Assembly: GCA_965371515.1 (NCBI GenBank)
Contig: CBDUYR010000002.1
Span: 1-64,000, forward strand
DNA length: 64,000 nt
Source: an uncultured bacterium
Lineage (GTDB): Bacteria > Krumholzibacteriota > Krumholzibacteriia > Krumholzibacteriales > Krumholzibacteriaceae
Direction of reading: 5' to 3'
The notes under the pieces are model-generated. The model did no database searches and was not told where the DNA came from. It worked only from the letters and a program-made list of their open reading frames with translations. Positions within the stretch are counted from its first letter, which is position 1, and each line of letters begins with the position of its first letter. The translations under genes were made by a program, and so were the position numbers. This document shows positions 55,899 through 64,000 of the stretch, piece by piece.

Positions 55899-56849
55899 TT
55901 GATCCGAATAAGGGAACTGTCAAAATATTACGGGATTACGAAGGCTGTGGATAACCTCTCCTTTACTGTCGAGAGAGGCGAAGTCCTCGGTTTTCTCGGG
56001 CCGAACGGCGCCGGCAAGACCACCACGATGAAAATACTCGCCTGCTACCTTCCCCCTTCTTCCGGTACGGCGGAGATCTTCGGATCCGACATACTGAATG
56101 ATTCGATGGCGGTAAGGAAGAGGATCGGCTACCTCCCCGAAAAGAATCCCCTCTACACCGACATGGACGTCCGCTCCTTCCTCGAGTTCGCTGCCCGCCT
56201 GAAGGGCGTGGAAAGAGAGTCGCTGAACGGTTCGGTGGGCGCAGTCATAGAGAGATGCGGGCTCGGGGAAGTGAGGCGCAGGAAGATCGGCAACCTCTCA
56301 AAGGGATTCCAGCAGAGGGTAGGAATCGCCCAGGCGATCGTGAACGATCCGGAGCTGCTGATCCTCGACGAGCCGACGATCGGCCTCGACCCGAGGCAGA
56401 TAATCGACATCAGAACGCTGATCAAGGAACTGGGCAGGGAGAGGACCGTCATACTCAGCTCACACATCCTCCCCGAGGTAAGCCAGGTCTGCGACAGGAT
56501 AATCATTATCAACAACGGACGTCTCGTGGCCGTCGATTCCCCGGACAACCTCCGCAACAGGCTCAAGAAATCCTCGATGACCAAGGTCCGCATTGCCGGA
56601 TCAGCCGATCCGGCCGACACCGAACGTGTCATCCTGTCAGTCGAGGGGACGCGCATGATCCGGATCGAGGAACCGGGCGGAGACGGGTCCGCACTTATCA
56701 CGGTCGAATCGTCTTCCGATTCCGATATCCGCAGCGCTCTCGCGAAAAGACTCGTCGAGGAGGATATACCCCTGCTCGAGATCTACAGCGAGGAACTCTC
56801 CCTGGAGGACATCTTCATCAGGCTCGTTACCGAGGAGGGCAACGCATGA
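55899..56849 (+). CDS. ABC transporter ATP-binding subunit (GldA-like)
   Basis: GPNGAGKTT, IGYLPE.NPLY, LSKGFQQR, LILDEPT.GLDP, LSSHIL. Confidence 0.92.
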   Translation: MIRIRELSKYYGITKAVDNLSFTVERGEVLGFLGPNGAGKTTTMKILACYLPPSSGTAEIFGSDILNDSMAVRKRIGYLPEKNPLYTDMDVRSFLEFAARLKGVERESLNGSVGAVIERCGLGEVRRRKIGNLSKGFQQRVGIAQAIVNDPELLILDEPTIGLDPRQIIDIRTLIKELGRERTVILSSHILPEVSQVCDRIIIINNGRLVAVDSPDNLRNRLKKSSMTKVRIAGSADPADTERVILSVEGTRMIRIEEPGGDGSALITVESSSDSDIRSALAKRLVEEDIPLLEIYSEELSLEDIFIRLVTEEGNA

Positions 56850-57616
56850 GCATAACCTCCGCGATATACGGCAGGGAACTGAGATACTTTTTCCAGTCGG
56901 TGACAGCGTATGTGGTCATCTTTATGTTTCTGGTAGTGTCAGGCGGATTCTTCTACTTCATCTTCCGTGCCTACAACCTGATGTCCCTGCAGTCGTTGCA
57001 GAGCGCATTCGCGCCGGGGGGCCTGAACCTCATCGACGGAGTGATGCGGCCGCTGCTCGGCAACATCAGCATCATGATCCTGCTCTTCCTGCCCCTTCTC
57101 ACGATGAGACTGATGGCCGAGGAAAAGAAGCAGGGAACCTTCGAACTCCTCTCCACATACCCCGTCTCCGACATAGCCATCGTATCGGGCAAGTTTCTCG
57201 CGGCGCTGACTGTATACGCGATAATGCTCGGCTGCACTCTGCTGTATCCAGGGATGCTCTTCTTATACGCCGAACCGGAGATCGTACCCATCGTCACGGG
57301 ATACCTCGGTCTTCTGCTCATGGGCACCGCTTTCATCGCAATCGGTACATTTTTTTCTTCACTTACCTCCAACCAGATCATCGCCGGCGTAGCCACCTTC
57401 AGCACTTTCCTCTTCTTTCTCCTGATCGGCTGGGGCGTCCCGTTTGTCGGACCGAAGTTCGCGGAGGTTCTCGCGCAGGTATCTATCCTCTATCATTTCG
57501 AATCTTTCTCAAAGGGAGTGATCGAGACGAGCGACGTGACATACTATATCTTCCTCGCTGCCTTTTTCCTGTTTCTGACGGTGAGGTCTCTCGAATCAAC
57601 CAGGTGGAAAAGCTGA
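56846..57616 (+). CDS. ABC-2 type permease (GldF-like)
   Basis: Real start MSITSAIY at 56846 (ATGA overlap); RELR.FF.S..AY, PLLTMRL.AEEKK.GT.ELL..YP, SSLT.NQ. Confidence 0.88.
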   Translation: MSITSAIYGRELRYFFQSVTAYVVIFMFLVVSGGFFYFIFRAYNLMSLQSLQSAFAPGGLNLIDGVMRPLLGNISIMILLFLPLLTMRLMAEEKKQGTFELLSTYPVSDIAIVSGKFLAALTVYAIMLGCTLLYPGMLFLYAEPEIVPIVTGYLGLLLMGTAFIAIGTFFSSLTSNQIIAGVATFSTFLFFLLIGWGVPFVGPKFAEVLAQVSILYHFESFSKGVIETSDVTYYIFLAAFFLFLTVRSLESTRWKS

Positions 57617-59166
57617 TGGGCAGCGTAATTTATAAAGTGCTCGGCGCTGCCGGTCTCGTCCTGATCGTCATCGGGGGAATAGTCTACGGGATCTTCTACA
57701 CGAGCGGGTGGCCCGCCGTACTCCCCCTCGCCCTCGGCATTGTGCTGACCATAGGGGCTTTCGCCGGTGGATACCGTTCCGAAAGATCGGAAGGATCGAG
57801 ACGAACCGCCCGATACGGAATAAGCGCTGGCCTTTCCGCCATAACGGTGGCTGCTATCCTGATCTTCCTCCAGACACTGTCTTTCAGGCATACTTCTACG
57901 ATCGATCTTACGAGCAACCGGCGTTTTTCCCTCTCATCCCAGACAGAAAAGGTCCTCGGCGCACTTGAAACACCCGTGCACCTCACTGGATTCTACAAGG
58001 AGACGAGCCAGGACAGGGTCGTGCTGCAGGACCTGCTCGAGAGTTATTCGGCGCGCAAACCGGCCGTGACATTTATCTTCATCGATCCCGACAAGTATCC
58101 AACTAAAGCACGAGAGTATGGAGTCACAAAACCAGGCATACTATTCGTAGAAACCGGCGAGGCGCGTGAAGAACTCGAGAATCCTGACGAGCAGCGTTTG
58201 ACAAACGCAATCGCCAGGGTGACTTCCGGCAGTGTGAAGACGGTCTGCTTCCTCACCGGCCATGGGGAAAAGTCGGTTTTCGAGACGGGGCCCCACGGTA
58301 TCAGCGGTCTGATGGAGGCGCTCCATATGGAAAATTTCGAGGTCCGTGACATCCTCGCTCTCAGCGCCGAGAAGATTCCGGAGGAGTGTGACATCCTCAT
58401 CGCCGCCGGTCCTGAGAAGGACATAGTCAAGCATGAGCAGAATGTGATCCTCGACTACCTGGTCGGCGGCGGACGTGCCCTCTTCCTCGTCGATCCGATG
58501 ACCGAGATCACAAACATCGAGGGGATACTGGCAGCCTACGGAATAATTCTCGGCGACGACGTTATCGTAGACATGCAGGGAAAACTACTTGCGGGCAACT
58601 TTCTCACTCCTGTTGTGAACAGTTACGGCAAGCATCCGATAACCGACGGATTCCGGCATTTCACATTCTTCCCTCAGGCACGGTCTGTCATCGCGCTGGC
58701 GGATACACCTCCATCTCTGGTGGTTACGGCCCTTTGCCGGACAAATGAAGGTACCTATTCCGAGACCGATATGTCGACCCTGCTCGAGGGCCAGACGCAG
58801 TACGATCCCTCGGAGGACACCAAGGGGCCGATCGACATCGCCGTGGCCTCGGCCATGGGATTCAGCCCTGATTCCATGTCCACGGTCATTGAATCCCGCG
58901 TGGTCGTTTTCGGCGACAGCGATTTCGCCGGGAACTCCAACCTTCGTCTTTCGGGAAACAGGGATCTTCTACTCAATACGATCCTCTGGCTCGCCGAGGC
59001 GGAAGACATGATCTCGATCAGGCCGACCGACAACCTGCAGCAGCCCGTCCTGCTGACAGCTGCCCAGGGACGTTTCGTCTTCTGGATCCCGGTCGTTGCC
59101 CTTCCTGCACTGGTACTGCTCACCGGAGCGGCGATCCTCACGTGGAGAAAGAAAACCGTCCGGTAG
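57604..59166 (+). CDS. GldG-family ABC accessory protein
   Basis: DLT.N.RFSLS.QT..VL, IDPD..P, FLTGHGE, GG.....DP, V.GDSDF, N.DL..N...WL. Confidence 0.85.
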   Translation: MEKLMGSVIYKVLGAAGLVLIVIGGIVYGIFYTSGWPAVLPLALGIVLTIGAFAGGYRSERSEGSRRTARYGISAGLSAITVAAILIFLQTLSFRHTSTIDLTSNRRFSLSSQTEKVLGALETPVHLTGFYKETSQDRVVLQDLLESYSARKPAVTFIFIDPDKYPTKAREYGVTKPGILFVETGEAREELENPDEQRLTNAIARVTSGSVKTVCFLTGHGEKSVFETGPHGISGLMEALHMENFEVRDILALSAEKIPEECDILIAAGPEKDIVKHEQNVILDYLVGGGRALFLVDPMTEITNIEGILAAYGIILGDDVIVDMQGKLLAGNFLTPVVNSYGKHPITDGFRHFTFFPQARSVIALADTPPSLVVTALCRTNEGTYSETDMSTLLEGQTQYDPSEDTKGPIDIAVASAMGFSPDSMSTVIESRVVVFGDSDFAGNSNLRLSGNRDLLLNTILWLAEAEDMISIRPTDNLQQPVLLTAAQGRFVFWIPVVALPALVLLTGAAILTWRKKTVR

Positions 59167-59179
59167 TGGAGGTCCCGAT

Positions 59180-60502
59180 ATGAAGGGGCGCAGCCTCATC
59201 ATCCTGATCGCCGTTCTCGTCATTGTGGCCGGGTATTTCTTCCTCGTCGAGGAGAAGCAGCACCGGGACACTGCAGATGCGAAGAGGACCTCTCGAATGC
59301 TCCTGCCGTACGGCCCTCTCGACATCGATGCCGTCTCCTTTATCAATCCATACGGCGAGACGATAATGTGGGAAAGGGACGGCGAGGGATGGATGATAAC
59401 ATTTCCCGTTACCGATATCGGCGAGAAGAGTACTATCGACATGTTCCTCGGCCAGATCGCTCCCGGGCGGAAGCTCGAGGAGTTTGCCGACGTGACCGAC
59501 CTCTCCTCTTACGGGCTCGCTCCGCCTTACGCCACCGTCATCATCGAGAGCGAAAAGTACGGAAGGACCGATACCGTTCATGTTGGCGGGAAGACTCCCA
59601 CAAGCTTCAGGTCATACGTGACTCTCGGATCGTCAGGGAATGTAGTGGTGACCCGCGAGCTCGCCCGCAACGTGATGCAGAAGAAGCTGTTTCACCTGAG
59701 GGACAAGAACTTCATCGCCCCGGCCGACAGGAACATCACATCGTTTTCAATCGTCTCGGGCGGAAACCTTCTCGCCTTTCAGCGGTCGGGAAACTCCTGG
59801 AAGGTAGCCGGCTCGACGCTGACAGTCGACCGCAACGTCCTTGAACCCTGGGTTACCGGGCTGGCCTCCGCCCTTGTATACGAATTCGCCTCCGAGAACC
59901 TGGCCGACACCCTTCTGTTCGGGATAGGCGATCCTCACAGGTCAACCGTCCTCAATACCGCAAGCGGTGAATCGATCAGGATATCGTTCGGCAGGCGCAG
60001 GGATTCCCTTGTTCCGGTCGTCAGGTCGGGGCGCAAAAATGTGATGATGATAAAGGCCGGATTCCTGGACGCGTTCCACTGGACGGACGACCGCCTCATC
60101 GTCATGAACCTCTCCCTCGTAAAACCGGGAGAGGTCGGCGCCCTCCAGTGGGAGACCCCCGATACCATCGCCTCGTGGAGTATGGAGGACGGCGTATGGA
60201 TGACGCGTGGGGACGACCCCACCCCCGTCGACCAGGAAGCCTTGAAGTATCTGCTGATGTATCTTCGATCGGCGACCTTCGAAAGTCTCGTGACAGACCG
60301 AGAACTCGTATCCGCGGCGAAACCGGACATCATGATCACCCTTGGAGACAGGTCAGGCGAGGTGTTCGACATCATATCGCTATACCGTTTCGAGGACGGG
60401 ACTGCCGGGGGCATTTCGCTTTCTGGCGGAAACGCCGGCCATATCAGCGAGGGAACGCTTGCGGAGATCCACCGGGCATATTCGGCGATTATCATCCGTT
60501 AG
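59180..60502 (+). CDS. DUF4340-like membrane-anchored periplasmic protein
   Basis: GGAGG RBS, N-terminal TM, repeated W...P and L..YGL..P / FG...P units, G..TP...Y, LRDK. Confidence 0.75.
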   Translation: MKGRSLIILIAVLVIVAGYFFLVEEKQHRDTADAKRTSRMLLPYGPLDIDAVSFINPYGETIMWERDGEGWMITFPVTDIGEKSTIDMFLGQIAPGRKLEEFADVTDLSSYGLAPPYATVIIESEKYGRTDTVHVGGKTPTSFRSYVTLGSSGNVVVTRELARNVMQKKLFHLRDKNFIAPADRNITSFSIVSGGNLLAFQRSGNSWKVAGSTLTVDRNVLEPWVTGLASALVYEFASENLADTLLFGIGDPHRSTVLNTASGESIRISFGRRRDSLVPVVRSGRKNVMMIKAGFLDAFHWTDDRLIVMNLSLVKPGEVGALQWETPDTIASWSMEDGVWMTRGDDPTPVDQEALKYLLMYLRSATFESLVTDRELVSAAKPDIMITLGDRSGEVFDIISLYRFEDGTAGGISLSGGNAGHISEGTLAEIHRAYSAIIIR

Positions 60503-60553
60503 ACCGGGACAACTGCAGTATCACCTTTTGAGATATTCTGCTATATTTAATGC

Positions 60554-61684
60554 GTGATGAACGATTCTCAGGCAACGATATCGAGAAGGGATTTTCTTTC
60601 CTGCACGGCGGGAATGATAGCGGCTGGCGCCGCTCTTGGAGGTGCGGCATTCGCCGATGACGGCGGGCCGCATCCGGCTCGGTACTGGGAAAAGCTCGAG
60701 GACGGCCGCGTCCGCTGCACTCTCTGCCCCCATCGATGTACGATCTCCGACGGCAGGCGGGGCGCATGTAGAGTCAGAGAGAATCGCGGCGGGGTCCTCT
60801 ATTCCCTCTCGTGGGGAAGGCCGTGCGCCCTTCACATCGATCCGATCGAGAAGAAGCCGTTCTACCATTTCCTGCCCGGCTCCATCTCCCTCTCGATGTC
60901 GACGGTGGGATGCAACATGACATGCCGTTTCTGCCAGAACTGGCAGATCTCGCAATCATCTCCCGAGGACATCGATACCGAGAGTGTGAGTCCGGGATTC
61001 TTCGCGAAAAAAGCCACAAAATCGGGCGCTTCTTCCATAGCATTCACCTACGGGGAGCCGGTCGTCTTCATCGAGTACGCGATGGATATTGCGGCGGCCG
61101 CCAGGGAATCAGGCGTAAAGAGCGTGGTCGTCACCAACGGATATATCGAGCAGGAGCCACTAGCCGATCTCTGTTCATCGGTCGACGCGATCAAGGTCGA
61201 TCTCAAGGCCTTCGAGGACGGATACTACAGGAAGATATGCGGTGCCGGGCTCGACCCCGTTCTGCGCTCCCTCGTGGAGATCAGATCCCGTGGCGTATGG
61301 CTCGAGATCGTCTACCTTATGATTCCGACGCTCAACGACAACGCGGAGACGATCGGCAGGATGGCCGCCTGGATAGAGGCCGAACTCGGGCCTGACGTTC
61401 CGGTCCATTTCTCGAGGTTCCATCCCGCCTACCGCCTTCCGGACCTCCCTCCGACACCCGTCTCTTCGCTCGACGCGGCAAGGGCAAGATGTCTCGACGC
61501 CGGATTGAACTACGTCTATATCGGCAACGTAGCCGGTCACGAGGGCGGCTCGACATTCTGCCGTTCATGCTCGAATAAGATTATTGACAGGTCCGGGTAC
61601 ACAATACTTTCCATCGAGATGGACGGAGACAAATGCCGGTTCTGCGGGACCGCCCAGCCCGGAGTGTGGAGGAAAGATTCATGA
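60554..61684 (+). CDS. amrS: AmmeMemoRadiSam system radical SAM enzyme with an N-terminal twin-arginine signal
   Basis: SRRDFL + h-region + AFA, C.LCP..C......G.C.VR.N, DPIEKKP.YHF.PG, GCNMTCRFCQNW (CxxxCxxC), TY.EP, HFSRFHP, YVYIGN, C..C...C..C. Confidence 0.92.
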   Translation: MMNDSQATISRRDFLSCTAGMIAAGAALGGAAFADDGGPHPARYWEKLEDGRVRCTLCPHRCTISDGRRGACRVRENRGGVLYSLSWGRPCALHIDPIEKKPFYHFLPGSISLSMSTVGCNMTCRFCQNWQISQSSPEDIDTESVSPGFFAKKATKSGASSIAFTYGEPVVFIEYAMDIAAAARESGVKSVVVTNGYIEQEPLADLCSSVDAIKVDLKAFEDGYYRKICGAGLDPVLRSLVEIRSRGVWLEIVYLMIPTLNDNAETIGRMAAWIEAELGPDVPVHFSRFHPAYRLPDLPPTPVSSLDAARARCLDAGLNYVYIGNVAGHEGGSTFCRSCSNKIIDRSGYTILSIEMDGDKCRFCGTAQPGVWRKDS

Positions 61685-63192
61685 GGATACGCGTGGCTAC
61701 CGGAGGGCTGATATTTATACTGATCCTTGCTGCGGCCGGTACTGATATTGCCGGCCTGAAAGGAAGCGATATGGTTAAATCGATCAGAAAACCGGCCGTT
61801 GCCGGACAGTTCTATTCTTCAGAACCGGAAGCGCTCCGCAGGGAGATAGAGAAATACATCGGCGAGGCCGATCCACCGGCCCTGGAGGACGACATATTCG
61901 CCCTCATATCTCCTCACGCCGGATACGTGTATTCGGGGCATGTAGCTGCATGGGGCTATTCGCTCCTCGATGAGGGGAGTTTCGAGACCGTCGTAATCAT
62001 CTCTCCCTGCCATGTCGATTACTTCCGTTTCGCCTCGATCTACGACGGCGACGCCTACGAGACTCCGCTCGGCCTTGTGGAGATCGATAAAGAGCTCTCT
62101 GAGGAGATCGCTTCGCGCAGCGACCTCGTGAGGATCGGCCCGGACGGACATGGTACGGGGTCCCGCGGAAGGGGCGAGCACTCGCTCGAGGTGCAGATCC
62201 CCTTCCTGCAGGTCGCCCTGGGGGATTTCAGGATCGTGCCGATAGTGATGGGTGACCAGTCCGCCGATGTAGTGCAAGGCCTGGGAGAAGCGCTCTCAGG
62301 GGCACTCGAGGGCCGCAACGTACTGATCGTCGCCAGTACCGATCTATCCCATTTCCATGACGACGCCTCGGCAAGGAAGCTCGACGGCGAGTTCATAGAG
62401 AAACTCGAGGCTTTCGACGCCGGAGGCCTCATGCACTCGATCGATGCGGGAAAGACCGAGGCGTGCGGCGGCGGACCATCGGCGGCGGCGATGATAGCCT
62501 CTGCCAGTCTCGGCGGCAGAGACTGCAAGGTACTGCAATACGCCAATTCCGGTGACGTCTCTGGTGACAGGGGAAGTGTCGTCGGTTACGTCTCCGCCGT
62601 CATCACGGGAATCCGCGGTAAAAGCGACGGTGACGACGTCGACAGGGAGACGAGGATATTCCTCCTGCGTTACGCCAGGTCGGTCATCCGCAAGAATCTC
62701 GGCATGGAGACAGAGGAGATCGAGAGACCTGACTCGCCCCTCCTCATGGAGAAGCGCGGAGGATTCGTCACTCTCAAGAAGAACGGCAGGCTCAGGGGCT
62801 GCATCGGATATATCGAGGCTGTCAAACCTCTTCTCGATACGGTCGGCGAGATGGCTTACTCGGCGGCATTCAGCGACCACAGGTTCGACCAGGTCAGGAA
62901 GGAAGAGGTCGACGACCTGGCGATCGAGATATCGGTACTCAGCCCGGTGCGCGAGACAACGGACCCTTCGGAAATCGAAGTCGGGAGGCATGGGATCATA
63001 ATATCGGCAGGAGGGCGGCGGGGGCTCCTCCTTCCCCAGGTGGCGGTCGAATACGGCTGGGACAGGGACACGTTTCTCGACCAGACGTGCGTCAAGGCCG
63101 GTCTCTCTCCCGGCGCCTGGAAGGATGCCGGTACCACTATAGAGATTTTCAGCGCCGAGATATTCTCCGAAAAGGAGATGGGATTACGTTGA
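61681..63192 (+). CDS. amrB: Fused AmmeMemoRadiSam proteins B (MEMO1-like) and A (AMMECR1-like)
   Basis: R.PAVAGQFY, PHAGYVYSG, EHSLEVQ.PFLQ, ASTDLSH, CG, SGD...VVGY; then GGFVTL...G.LRGCIG, D.RF, EISVLSP, GLLLPQVA.E..W...FL...C.KAG. Alternative ATG at 61771. Confidence 0.92.
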   Translation: MRIRVATGGLIFILILAAAGTDIAGLKGSDMVKSIRKPAVAGQFYSSEPEALRREIEKYIGEADPPALEDDIFALISPHAGYVYSGHVAAWGYSLLDEGSFETVVIISPCHVDYFRFASIYDGDAYETPLGLVEIDKELSEEIASRSDLVRIGPDGHGTGSRGRGEHSLEVQIPFLQVALGDFRIVPIVMGDQSADVVQGLGEALSGALEGRNVLIVASTDLSHFHDDASARKLDGEFIEKLEAFDAGGLMHSIDAGKTEACGGGPSAAAMIASASLGGRDCKVLQYANSGDVSGDRGSVVGYVSAVITGIRGKSDGDDVDRETRIFLLRYARSVIRKNLGMETEEIERPDSPLLMEKRGGFVTLKKNGRLRGCIGYIEAVKPLLDTVGEMAYSAAFSDHRFDQVRKEEVDDLAIEISVLSPVRETTDPSEIEVGRHGIIISAGGRRGLLLPQVAVEYGWDRDTFLDQTCVKAGLSPGAWKDAGTTIEIFSAEIFSEKEMGLR

Positions 63193-63201
63193 GGTTGACG
63201 G

Positions 63202-64000
63202 TCAGGCGCGGCCCGTAGCGATCTTTCGTGTAAGTATCAGGGCCGCCGCGCAGTGTATCGAAGCGGCCGTCGCGGCCGTCCACGCAAGCCCAGAAAGAGG
63301 CAGCAGCAGGGTTCCGGCAATCAGCCCTCCGGCGCACGCACCGAACATGTCCCACGAATAGAACAGTGCGGGAGGCGCGGCCGCTTCCGCTGGCCATGCC
63401 GTCTCGACGACTGTCCTGTAATAGAATCCCGTCAGCAGTCCGCCCGCTGTCGACAGGGCCGTGAATCCTGCAGTCCCCATCAGATGCCCGCTCCCCGCAC
63501 CGGCCTGAAGCCGGAGCCAGACAGGGACAAGGAGTGCCGTCACTGCCATCAGGATATGGCAGACAGCCAGCCTGGAAACTCCCTTCCCCTTCCGTCGTCC
63601 GCCGGCATATGCCCCGAGAGCGGCTCCCGCCATGAACAGGGAGGTCAGCAGCACGAGCGTGTGGTAGAGTATCCCCGAGAACGACTGGTAGGCAAGCATC
63701 ACTGACAGCTGAACCGTCATGCTGCACAGCCCCGTCAGGAACACCGCTGTTTTAGCCGCGGCACCACCCCTCACCAGTATCCCTGTAAGTATGGCGGCGG
63801 CAAGGATCACCGACGGCAGCACCCAGGATGGAAGATCCAGAATGGTTTCGAGAAACCTCACTGTCGCCGTTCCCGACTTCCAGCCGCGCAGTACCAGTTC
63901 AAAAGGCACCAGGACAGGATGTATGTCTGTGTTCAACCGTCGCGGCGCATCGGCCAGCGCGGAAGAGAGGTACTCTCTTCTCTCCTCCGAGATCCTGTAG
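63202..64000 (-). CDS. C-terminal part of a spermidine-synthase-like polytopic membrane protein (5' end outside the window)
   Basis: Frame is open to the window edge. NTD.HP motif, then TM segments with Q...G.LY...L...FMAG...G and FYSWD..GA..GG, as in membrane-fused spermidine-synthase-like proteins. Confidence 0.65.
   Translation of the reverse strand, partial: YRISEERREYLSSALADAPRRLNTDIHPVLVPFELVLRGWKSGTATVRFLETILDLPSWVLPSVILAAAILTGILVRGGAAAKTAVFLTGLCSMTVQLSVMLAYQSFSGILYHTLVLLTSLFMAGAALGAYAGGRRKGKGVSRLAVCHILMAVTALLVPVWLRLQAGAGSGHLMGTAGFTALSTAGGLLTGFYYRTVVETAWPAEAAAPPALFYSWDMFGACAGGLIAGTLLLPLSGLAWTAATAASIHCAAALILTRKIATGRA

Follow-up and report, generated by a model that had tools for sequence, protein, structure and literature searches.

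A 64,000-nucleotide stretch of DNA from an uncultured bacterium of the Krumholzibacteriaceae (the whole of it termed here the window) carries close to its end two coupled genes of the AmmeMemoRadiSam system, amrS and an amrB-amrA fusion, and both of their products begin with what reads as an export signal: one of the twin-arginine translocation (Tat) type in the radical S-adenosylmethionine (SAM) enzyme AmrS, and one of the Sec type in AmrB-A, the fusion of Memo and AMMECR1. From these sequences the export of AmrS and AmrB-A is likely, and we lean towards the reading that the AmmeMemoRadiSam set works on the outer face of the cytoplasmic membrane, together with a SAM-presenting membrane protein encoded next to it and with electrons from a DUF362/NapH-like pair of proteins. 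The complete scheme, in which SAM is delivered and electrons are routed to AmrS, is plausible and is put forward here tentatively. As far as we know, and in the literature searched, radical SAM enzymes count as cytoplasmic; they depend on SAM and on a low-potential electron donor, and their iron-sulfur clusters are sensitive to oxygen. An earlier note on this DNA, made from its letters, had proposed an exported variant of the system, and that interpretation is supported by the conservation of the signals, by their co-occurrence on the two proteins, by the recurrence of the neighbouring gene and by the start-site evidence. The features discussed below are as follows, with positions counted in the window.

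60554..61684, + strand: amrS, AmmeMemoRadiSam radical SAM enzyme, 375 aa from the ATG at 60557 (the GTG at 60554 is the first possible start)
60557..60655, + strand: predicted Tat signal peptide of AmrS, with S-R-R-D-F-L as residues 9-14 and the RR codons at 60584-60589
60911..60934, + strand: CX3CX2C radical SAM cluster motif (C119, C123, C126), invariant alignment columns (40 and 33 sequences)
61681..63192, + strand: amrB-amrA fusion (Memo and AMMECR1), 503 aa, whose ATG lies in an ATGA and overlaps the TGA stop of amrS at 61682-61684
61681..61770, + strand: predicted signal peptide (Sec type) of the fusion, with a short linker behind it, MRIR / VATGGLIFILILAAAG / TDIAGLKGSD, read by eye
61771..61773, + strand: internal ATG (Met31) of the fusion, a possible second start, preceded by GAAAGGAAGCGAT, which includes AAGGA
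63202..64000 in the window, continuing to contig position 65400, - strand: 732-aa gene for an MFS-fold transporter split by a spermidine-synthase-like domain, convergent with amrB-amrA and 9 nt from it

Predicted export signals and start sites of the two proteins

The reading frame of amrS opens with GTG-ATG and translates as (V/M)MNDSQATISRRDFLSCTAGMIAAGAALGGAAFADDGG. The family model TIGR04337 matches it at 407.4 bits (cut-off 220) across residues 41-373 only, leaving a 40-residue N-terminal extension, and the Radical_SAM domain (PF04055) is recognised at 64.9 bits. The structure model (pLDDT 90.6) tells the same, in that the fold begins near residue 40 and residues 1-38 lie outside it at low confidence. 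It is this extension in which the earlier note had seen a twin-arginine motif, a hydrophobic region and an AxA cleavage site, and all three are present as quoted: the h-region takes up residues 15-30 and is weakly hydrophobic, and it ends at AFA (residues 31-33), followed by DD. The Tat consensus is S/T-R-R-x-F-L-K and then an h-region, and the S-R-R-D-F-L-S of AmrS fits it. Cleavage sites and topologies, here and below, were derived from motif reading by eye, hydropathy and charge counts.

The note had made its proposal depend on the conservation of the RR motif in close homologues. Among the 120 best AmrS homologues (54-98% identity) RRxF is found in 110, of which 108 have F as the fourth residue and 105 have S, T or N ahead of RR, and the ten without it are fragments or gene calls that start within or after the h-region; among more distant representatives 36 of 151 sequences are Tat-like. 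The signal also differs in character from that of its partner, in the direction expected of Tat vs Sec signals, as the median of the maximal 12-residue hydropathy is 1.81 for the h-region of AmrS vs 2.62 for the signal of AmrB-A; owing to the kinship of the sequences a test statistic overstates this difference. Across the whole genome a relaxed Tat-like pattern matches 17 of the 6853 open reading frames (ORFs) of at least 150 aa.

The second gene lies in an open frame at 61633..63192 (+ strand) that holds the ATG at 61681, and the protein from there reads MRIRVATGGLIFILILAAAGTDIAGLKGSDM. Both of its domains are well recognised: Memo by PF01875 (213.4 bits, residues 37-307) and TIGR04336 (279.5 bits, cut-off 26, residues 36-308), and AMMECR1 by PF01871 (190 bits, residues 329-495) and TIGR04335 (185.5 bits, cut-off 99, residues 328-495). 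Relatives of known structure are PH0010 (1vaj, 6e-36) and MEMO1 (7kq8, 1.4e-14); the Memo motifs PHAGY, SPCH and DLSHF align with MEMO1, and the cysteine motif LRGCIG of AMMECR1 is retained. Sec signal peptides have a positive n-region, an h-region of some 10-16 residues and small residues at -3 and -1. The Sec-like signal that had been suggested for the fusion recurs in 104 of its 120 best homologues (51-95% identity) as a positive N-terminus and a strongly hydrophobic stretch, with small residues after it (-3/-1); gene calls that start at or close to an internal Met, or that are truncated, account for the other 16.

Such late gene calls, which are also found among some AmrS homologues, would be expected if the starts were mis-called upstream and the "signals" were a chance translation of upstream DNA. 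We regard this as very improbable, since the signals persist despite divergence (in 110 of 120 and 104 of 120 homologues) and across phyla, the amrS stop and the Memo motif keep a constant spacing of 98-112 nt in relatives (all 14 loci where it can be measured), and a strong Shine-Dalgarno (SD) sequence precedes the upstream start. In the window and 20 relatives, the signal frame is open in 21 of 21 genomes, with a start codon near the amrS stop and an h-region; the end of amrS was not located by the pattern in seven of these loci, and the counts of overlap and spacing use the other 14. The ATGA coupling that the note had described holds, as the ATG at 61681 overlaps the amrS stop, and an NTGA overlap of the two genes was verified at 8 of the 14 loci. 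Pairing with the anti-SD sequence before 61681 amounts to -10.0 kcal/mol in the window, which is also the median of the 21 genomes, a median biased by the choice of the upstream start as the candidate with the best SD.

A start at 61771, preceded by AAGGA, had been named in the note as one that would leave AmrB-A in the cytoplasm. As the sole start it is unlikely, because 61681 has the stronger SD, overlaps the amrS stop and is followed by a signal stretch that is kept in 21 of 21 genomes, and we conclude that a form of AmrB-A bearing the predicted export signal is made. Initiation at 61771 could give a second isoform, which would be cytoplasmic. The internal start is of interest because the genome encodes a second AmrS that lacks a signal (C94:1764-2762, + strand, 333 aa, TIGR04337 318.8 bits), with no Memo or AMMECR1 adjoining it, and holds only one AMMECR1 domain. 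This second amrS is flanked by a polyprenyl synthase-like gene and by rsfS/argS-type genes (named from sequence alone); two AmrS copies are present in most of 30 relatives, where the signal-less copy lies a few kb from tatC.

The two starts could thus serve a dual localisation, in which 61681 would give an exported form for the Tat-type AmrS and 61771 a cytoplasmic form for the signal-less AmrS, as an addition to the exported system. In its favour are the single AMMECR1 domain, the presence of the AmrS pair in most relatives, the place of the second AmrS in a clade that is predicted to be cytoplasmic, and the internal Met itself, which is found in 120 of 120 fusion homologues. The stretch before this Met has a median anti-SD pairing of -6.5 kcal/mol in the 21 genomes, compared with -3.0 for a set of 152 in-frame ATGs elsewhere in these genes, ten of which reach -6.5. 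On the other side, these purine-rich codons may only reflect a charged linker in the protein (K, G, D, E, R), the internal Met is absent from exported fusions of other phyla, many signal-less AmrS elsewhere are also without a nearby Memo or AMMECR1, and the SD of the upstream start is stronger (median -10.0, picked by best SD). We hold the dual localisation to be doubtful. The wider proposal, of a self-sufficient radical SAM machine outside together with a cytoplasmic AmrB-A isoform that serves the signal-less paralogue, is offered as possible.

To see how the two signals are distributed, loci were sampled with one genome per species, taking the best 80 of at least 600 pattern matches from many phyla, which makes 81 with the window. 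An automated classification of the AmrS N-terminus gave 53 Tat-like, 12 Sec-like or transmembrane (Sec/TM) and 16 loci without a signal. In the earlier note the joint occurrence of signals on AmrS and on Memo(-AMMECR1) had been proposed as a check, and it is borne out at the 38 loci with a complete 5′ end of the Memo gene, where the automated calls gave 27 pairs with both proteins exported, four with neither, and seven discordant ones (six with a signal on Memo only, one with a signal on AmrS only). After manual reading the same loci gave 32, five and one. The manual reading concerned N-termini with RR and a charged residue early in the h-region, misclassed by the automated classifier (L020, L027, L050, L081), three AmrS called Tat that are Sec/TM-like by eye (L032, L053, L092), a weak Memo signal that had been missed (L042), and a Memo "signal" that is probably an over-extended ORF (L073). 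One locus (L079:3600-4000) has a split or frameshifted AmrS: a membrane anchor and the earliest conserved residues (EAKYY) are encoded by a short ORF upstream, and what remains of the enzyme follows in a different frame. The five pairs without signals are all of Bacteroidales type, so that the association is a contrast between clades and not a set of 38 independent events. Outside the phylum of this lineage the signals of the partner are often of the lipoprotein type.

For a quick maximum-likelihood tree 158 AmrS sequences were brought together: the window protein with its paralogue, six nearer homologues and 150 representatives from clustering at 50%. The AmrS domain was covered by 151 of them. 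These 151 rows comprise 36 Tat-like and four Sec/TM N-termini, 14 long N-terminal fusions, 15 C-terminal fusions, 16 unclear extensions, and 66 without any extension. One branch (SH-aLRT 95) parts 69 rows, among them all 36 Tat-like and all four Sec/TM rows, from 82 rows without either, and the second AmrS of this genome belongs to the latter. Because all rows with predicted signals are held by this single branch, the exported type of AmrS, as judged from its signals, is an old and distinct branch and not a local oddity.

The membrane neighbour and a possible supply of SAM and electrons

The gene that converges on amrB-amrA encodes a membrane protein whose structure model (pLDDT 89.7, pTM 0.91) consists of seven helices, a soluble domain and seven further helices. 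In a fold search with VIA-align against every representative chain, transporters of the major facilitator superfamily (MFS) ranked first: VMAT2 (9kqa_A) matched at Z 28.3 with 341 residues aligned at an rmsd of 3.7, SotB at Z 27.5, and more than 40 MFS entries at Z of at least 20, with alignments spanning model residues 1-732; for the inserted soluble domain the top match was SpeE (1uir_A, Z 27.9). Compared by hhalign, each membrane half proves to be a homologue of the other (98.5%, E 1.7e-15). The MFS assignment is one drawn from the predicted fold only.

Hallmarks of SpeE are its GGG(D/E)G loop and, within D-x-x-D-P, the Asp that accepts the proton. When the neighbour is set against Thermus SpeE (1uir/3anx), GGGEG is replaced by GGGPG and IIDLTDP by IVNVPEP; Asn stands at the position of the Asp in most of 40 aligned members of the neighbour family, and the V-E-L-D strand end is retained. 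We regard the insert as a catalytically altered, spermidine-synthase-like domain. The match to PF01564 is weak (44.2 bits), and the protein falls far below all NCBIfam aminopropyltransferase cut-offs (TIGR00417 at 55.4 vs 249.55, PRK00811 at 65 vs 260).

The charges of the loops alternate along the protein. In 33 homologues, counts of K+R are high in the N-tail (2.0) and in loops L2-3 (3.0), L4-5 (2.0), L6-7 (2.9), L8-9 (3.45) and L10-11 (3.4), and low in L1-2 (0.06), L5-6 (0.18) and L9-10 (0), which places the inserted domain, by prediction, on the outside. This placement agrees with the geometry of the fold, in that an MFS half comes to its end on the cytoplasmic side and the insert would be brought across the membrane by an additional helix before and after it.

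The recurrence of this spermidine-synthase-like neighbour, which the earlier note had also raised, was seen with tblastn, as a homologue is found at 37 of 80 loci; an ORF of at least 560 aa is present at 35 loci. By the manual classes it accompanies AmrS at 36 of the 69 loci where AmrS bears a signal vs 1 of the 11 where it does not. A higher figure of 49 loci for a SpeE-like cluster was discarded, because single linkage had drawn in shadow ORFs. The modelled topology would allow the neighbour to present SAM, or a related adenosyl compound, outside.

Candidate electron-transfer partners were sought by all-against-all clustering of ORFs at the 81 loci. DUF362 proteins occur at 20 of them, immediately 5′ of amrS and in most cases bearing an RR signal; DsbD_2-like membrane proteins occur at seven loci, DsbD/FMN_bind/NosR-like proteins at six, and a NapH-like polyferredoxin at three loci of Acidobacteriota. 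In this genome a related pair is encoded on another contig (C61:1617-4099, - strand), consisting of a DUF362 protein with a Tat signal (306 aa; PF10518 21.5 bits, DUF362 181.6 bits) and, immediately behind it, a NapH-like polyferredoxin of 518 aa, which in its C-terminal stretch shares 46% identity with the partial one at locus L026. Because in other phyla both proteins have counterparts within the AmrS cassette, this pair is, by analogy, a likely electron route.

Fused proteins of other organisms bear on the same question. Pfam was run on 23 long AmrS homologues, and one chain (P0272) was found to combine a signal, Memo, AMMECR1 and the radical SAM domain. In two others a signal and then a beta-propeller (P0244) or CBM_11 (P0251) come first and the radical SAM domain follows; apart from the signal no membrane helix is predicted in them. 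Membrane domains of DsbD_2 type are fused to the AmrS domain in P0249 and P0278, and NosR/NapH-like modules of FMN_bind and Fer4_5 precede it in P0254, P0257, P0276 and P0293; these six are metagenomic representatives. A rough count by hydropathy and charge gives an odd number of helices in P0254 and P0257 (one expected helix was missed in P0257), which would put the radical SAM domain on the FMN_bind side. These fusions suggest, by analogy, how a radical SAM domain on the outside could receive electrons.

Put together, the steps that we infer concern export, SAM delivery, the electron route, and a substrate in the envelope or periplasm. AmrS would acquire its fold and its iron-sulfur clusters in the cytoplasm before its export by Tat, and Sec would export the Memo-AMMECR1 fusion in the unfolded state. 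The neighbour would move SAM, or an adenosyl compound akin to it, through the membrane and hand it to AmrS via its outward SAM-fold domain; electrons would come from the Tat-exported DUF362 protein and the NapH-like (NapH/NosR-type) membrane polyferredoxin; and AmrS and Memo-AMMECR1 would modify an envelope or periplasmic substrate. The genes lpxC-fabZ, lpxA, lpxB and lpxK lie a few kb away, and the envelope is therefore taken to be diderm.

An unlikely alternative course is that AmrS is exported and runs no catalytic cycle outside, acting either once on its partner, like a stoichiometric activase that is exported with SAM already bound, or as an iron-sulfur subunit with a redox or structural part; the MFS/SpeE-like neighbour would then have another role, for example in moving a polyamine-like or adenosyl product. 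Such a course would fit the textbook behaviour of Tat, which carries folded proteins with bound cofactors, the protein substrate of PFL-activating enzyme (the closest solved fold to AmrS), the loss of SpeE's proton-acceptor Asp from the SpeE-like domain, and the fact that we know of no SAM pool in the periplasm. At 37 of 80 loci, however, AmrS is linked to an MFS fold whose SAM-fold domain is predicted to face outwards, and this looks like a provision for repeated turnover, as does its being linked or fused to transmembrane electron-transfer modules and to Tat-type DUF362 proteins.

Evidence against export and the Tat machinery

Several observations weigh against an exported and active system, and some of them would favour a cytoplasmic one, in which the N-terminal segments tether the proteins to the inner face of the membrane, beside the transporter-like protein, and the chemistry takes place in the cytoplasm. 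The first concerns the Tat signal itself, as the short Tat models stay below their thresholds: TIGR01409 reaches 13.6 bits on the N-terminal 48 residues of AmrS (cut-off 16.7) and formate_TAT 19.1 bits (E 0.0012, cut-off 48.45). A third model, PF10518, gives no match to AmrS at E of 0.01 or less, and precomputed PF10518 matches are on 4 of the 120 listed homologues. For a Tat-like N-terminus of this kind conservation is, in our judgement, a stronger test than the short Tat hidden Markov models.

A second group of observations comes from the locus sample and from fused homologues. One pair is discordant even after manual reading (L060), a separate AMMECR1 without a signal stands beside an RR-type AmrS at two loci (L077, L090), and a second AMMECR1 without a signal is found at another (L014). 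By the automated classes 12 of the 81 AmrS have plain Sec-type, lipoprotein or transmembrane-anchor N-termini without RR. The Sec route is hard to reconcile with the insertion of iron-sulfur clusters, and a hydrophobic N-terminus may therefore not always mean export of an active enzyme. In at least one triple fusion (P0248) the charges around the N-terminal anchor favour an N-out/C-in orientation, that is, a tether on the cytoplasmic face. Further points are the possible cytoplasmic AmrB-A isoform from 61771, the two membrane blocks of the neighbour, for which Pfam returned no MFS match at E up to 1, and the electron-transfer families: no DUF362, DsbD, NosR or NapH-like gene adjoins the window in this genome, where the DUF362/NapH-like pair is unlinked. 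We also know of no SAM pool or low-potential reductant in the periplasm. Finally, neither PF00902 nor TIGR00945 finds a tatC in the assembly at E up to 1.

Of these, the anchor of P0248, the Sec-type N-termini on some AmrS and the lack of tatC speak for a cytoplasmic tether. That both proteins stay inside is nonetheless quite improbable, given that the near-invariant S/T-R-R-x-F-L/I is a Tat targeting signal and not a feature of anchors, that AmrB-A has its positive residues N-terminal of the h-region and small -3/-1 residues after it, and that lipobox-type signals occur in other phyla. AmrS domains also stand behind CBM_11, beta-propeller and FMN_bind domains without an intervening transmembrane helix, and the SAM-fold domain of the neighbour is predicted to face outwards. 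As a separate observation, AmrS with Sec, lipoprotein or anchor N-termini and no RR were noted at L033, L046, L051, L055, L061, L062, L075, L078 and L089, in Omnitrophota, Elusimicrobia, Chlamydiae and others.

The missing tatC is best considered together with the state of the assembly, which is made up of 171 contigs and rated 99.6% complete. The genome has a tatA (73 bits, 74 aa, contig C31), and tatC is found in 28 of 30 relatives, including five of six of the same genus. In three congeners the DNA beside tatC matches a 2031-base contig of this assembly (C145) end to end, and in two of these contig C94, which also bears the second amrS, matches the far side, so that tatC lies between the C145 and C94 matches in a region of about 5 kb that is unassembled here. 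Since synteny sets tatC between these contig ends, an assembly gap is the simplest reading of its absence, and a loss of the gene is also possible. About ten other ORFs of the genome have strong RR signals, and by its gene content the lineage is, we consider, Tat-competent.

Two side observations were made in the course of this. Proteins of about 400 aa with strong RR signals are encoded at C11:68306, C15:30207, C29:22086 and C29:24196, with N-terminal domains that are aldo/keto reductase-like by eye, and these are probably further Tat substrates. At C31:27545-29020, tatA is followed by a tyrosine recombinase that, read from its sequence, resembles an integron-type integrase.

Relation to known systems

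The two genes are like the canonical AmmeMemoRadiSam system in that TIGR04337, TIGR04336 and TIGR04335 all match above their cut-offs, the genes are adjacent and coupled, and CX3CX2C is kept. They are unlike the canonical form, which is cytoplasmic (66 of the 151 sampled rows have no extension), in the predicted Tat signal on AmrS and the Sec-type signal on the fusion, in the MFS/SpeE-like membrane protein alongside, and, at other loci, in the Tat-type DUF362 proteins and the NosR/DsbD-like modules. For the canonical system modification of an RNA base was proposed in 2007 (PMC2034487). Export, if real, would exclude a cytoplasmic RNA substrate for the exported branch; it would narrow the function of Memo, AMMECR1 and the radical SAM enzyme, as a substrate confined to the cytoplasm, RNA being one example, could not hold for that branch, which is widespread and phylogenetically distinct within one family.

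Known iron-sulfur proteins exported by Tat include the small subunits of hydrogenases and the ferredoxin subunits of DmsB/NrfC type. AmrS resembles these in its S/T-R-R-x-F-L motif, in a moderate h-region with an Ala-x-Ala end, and in having an iron-sulfur passenger, and it differs in that the passenger is a radical SAM enzyme that needs SAM as a co-substrate and a low-potential donor. No description of a Tat-exported radical SAM enzyme was found in the literature searched, a search that left most subscription journals outside; among the papers found there that use the word AmmeMemoRadiSam none, going by title and abstract, deals with the system. Candidate parts have now been identified, namely the signals of AmrS and AmrB-A, the transporter, and the DUF362 protein with its NapH-like companion, and the combination of a Tat signal, Sec or lipoprotein partners, an outward SAM-fold transporter and electron modules would make extracytoplasmic radical SAM chemistry a concrete and testable proposal.

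PFL-activating enzyme is the best solved fold for the AmrS model (3cb8_A, E 1.5e-14, TM 0.81 on target) and also the best solved sequence match of the radical SAM core (E 1.1e-08; PDB 3c8f, 3cb8). AmrS is unlike it in having extra Cys-rich N- and C-terminal parts, and it stays below the models for glycyl-radical activases (TIGR02493 at 61.6 bits vs 231.75, TIGR02494 at 57.9 vs 174.35). Family scans of the surrounding proteins found no glycyl-radical enzyme partner in the neighbourhood of amrS.

The neighbour, in turn, is like the membrane-bound polyamine aminopropyltransferases (PRK03612/NF002956) in joining a membrane domain to a SpeE fold, and it aligns with them over residues 6-421. It is unlike them in its score (91 bits vs a cut-off of 472), in having GGGPG for GGG(E/D)G and Asn for the proton-acceptor Asp, and in the position of the SpeE-like domain, which is inserted between the halves of a complete MFS fold and predicted to face outwards.

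A further link between radical SAM chemistry and the periplasm is the HXS antiphage system (PMC13128918), whose periplasmic effector is matured by radical SAM enzymes; these act in the cytoplasm, and the product alone is exported. The likeness lies in the tie to the periplasm, and the difference is that here the radical SAM enzyme itself bears the predicted export signal.

Some observations on the surroundings of these genes may be added. A scan of 59800-63600 for promoters and terminators gave nothing above shuffled sequence. Upstream of amrS, on the same strand and 52 nt from it, lie genes for an ABC-2 permease-like, a GldG-like (ABC_transp_aux) and a DUF4340 protein (56255-60502, + strand). 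They were considered as members of the system and dropped, because the leading gene, which encodes an ABC ATPase and was the single one tracked, recurs at only 4 of the 81 AmrS loci. Elsewhere in the genome a divergent Memo-like protein (C11:54248-55426, - strand, 392 aa, PF01875 63 bits over part of the model) is encoded next to an MFS transporter gene, and a weak second Memo match is likewise found in most relatives.

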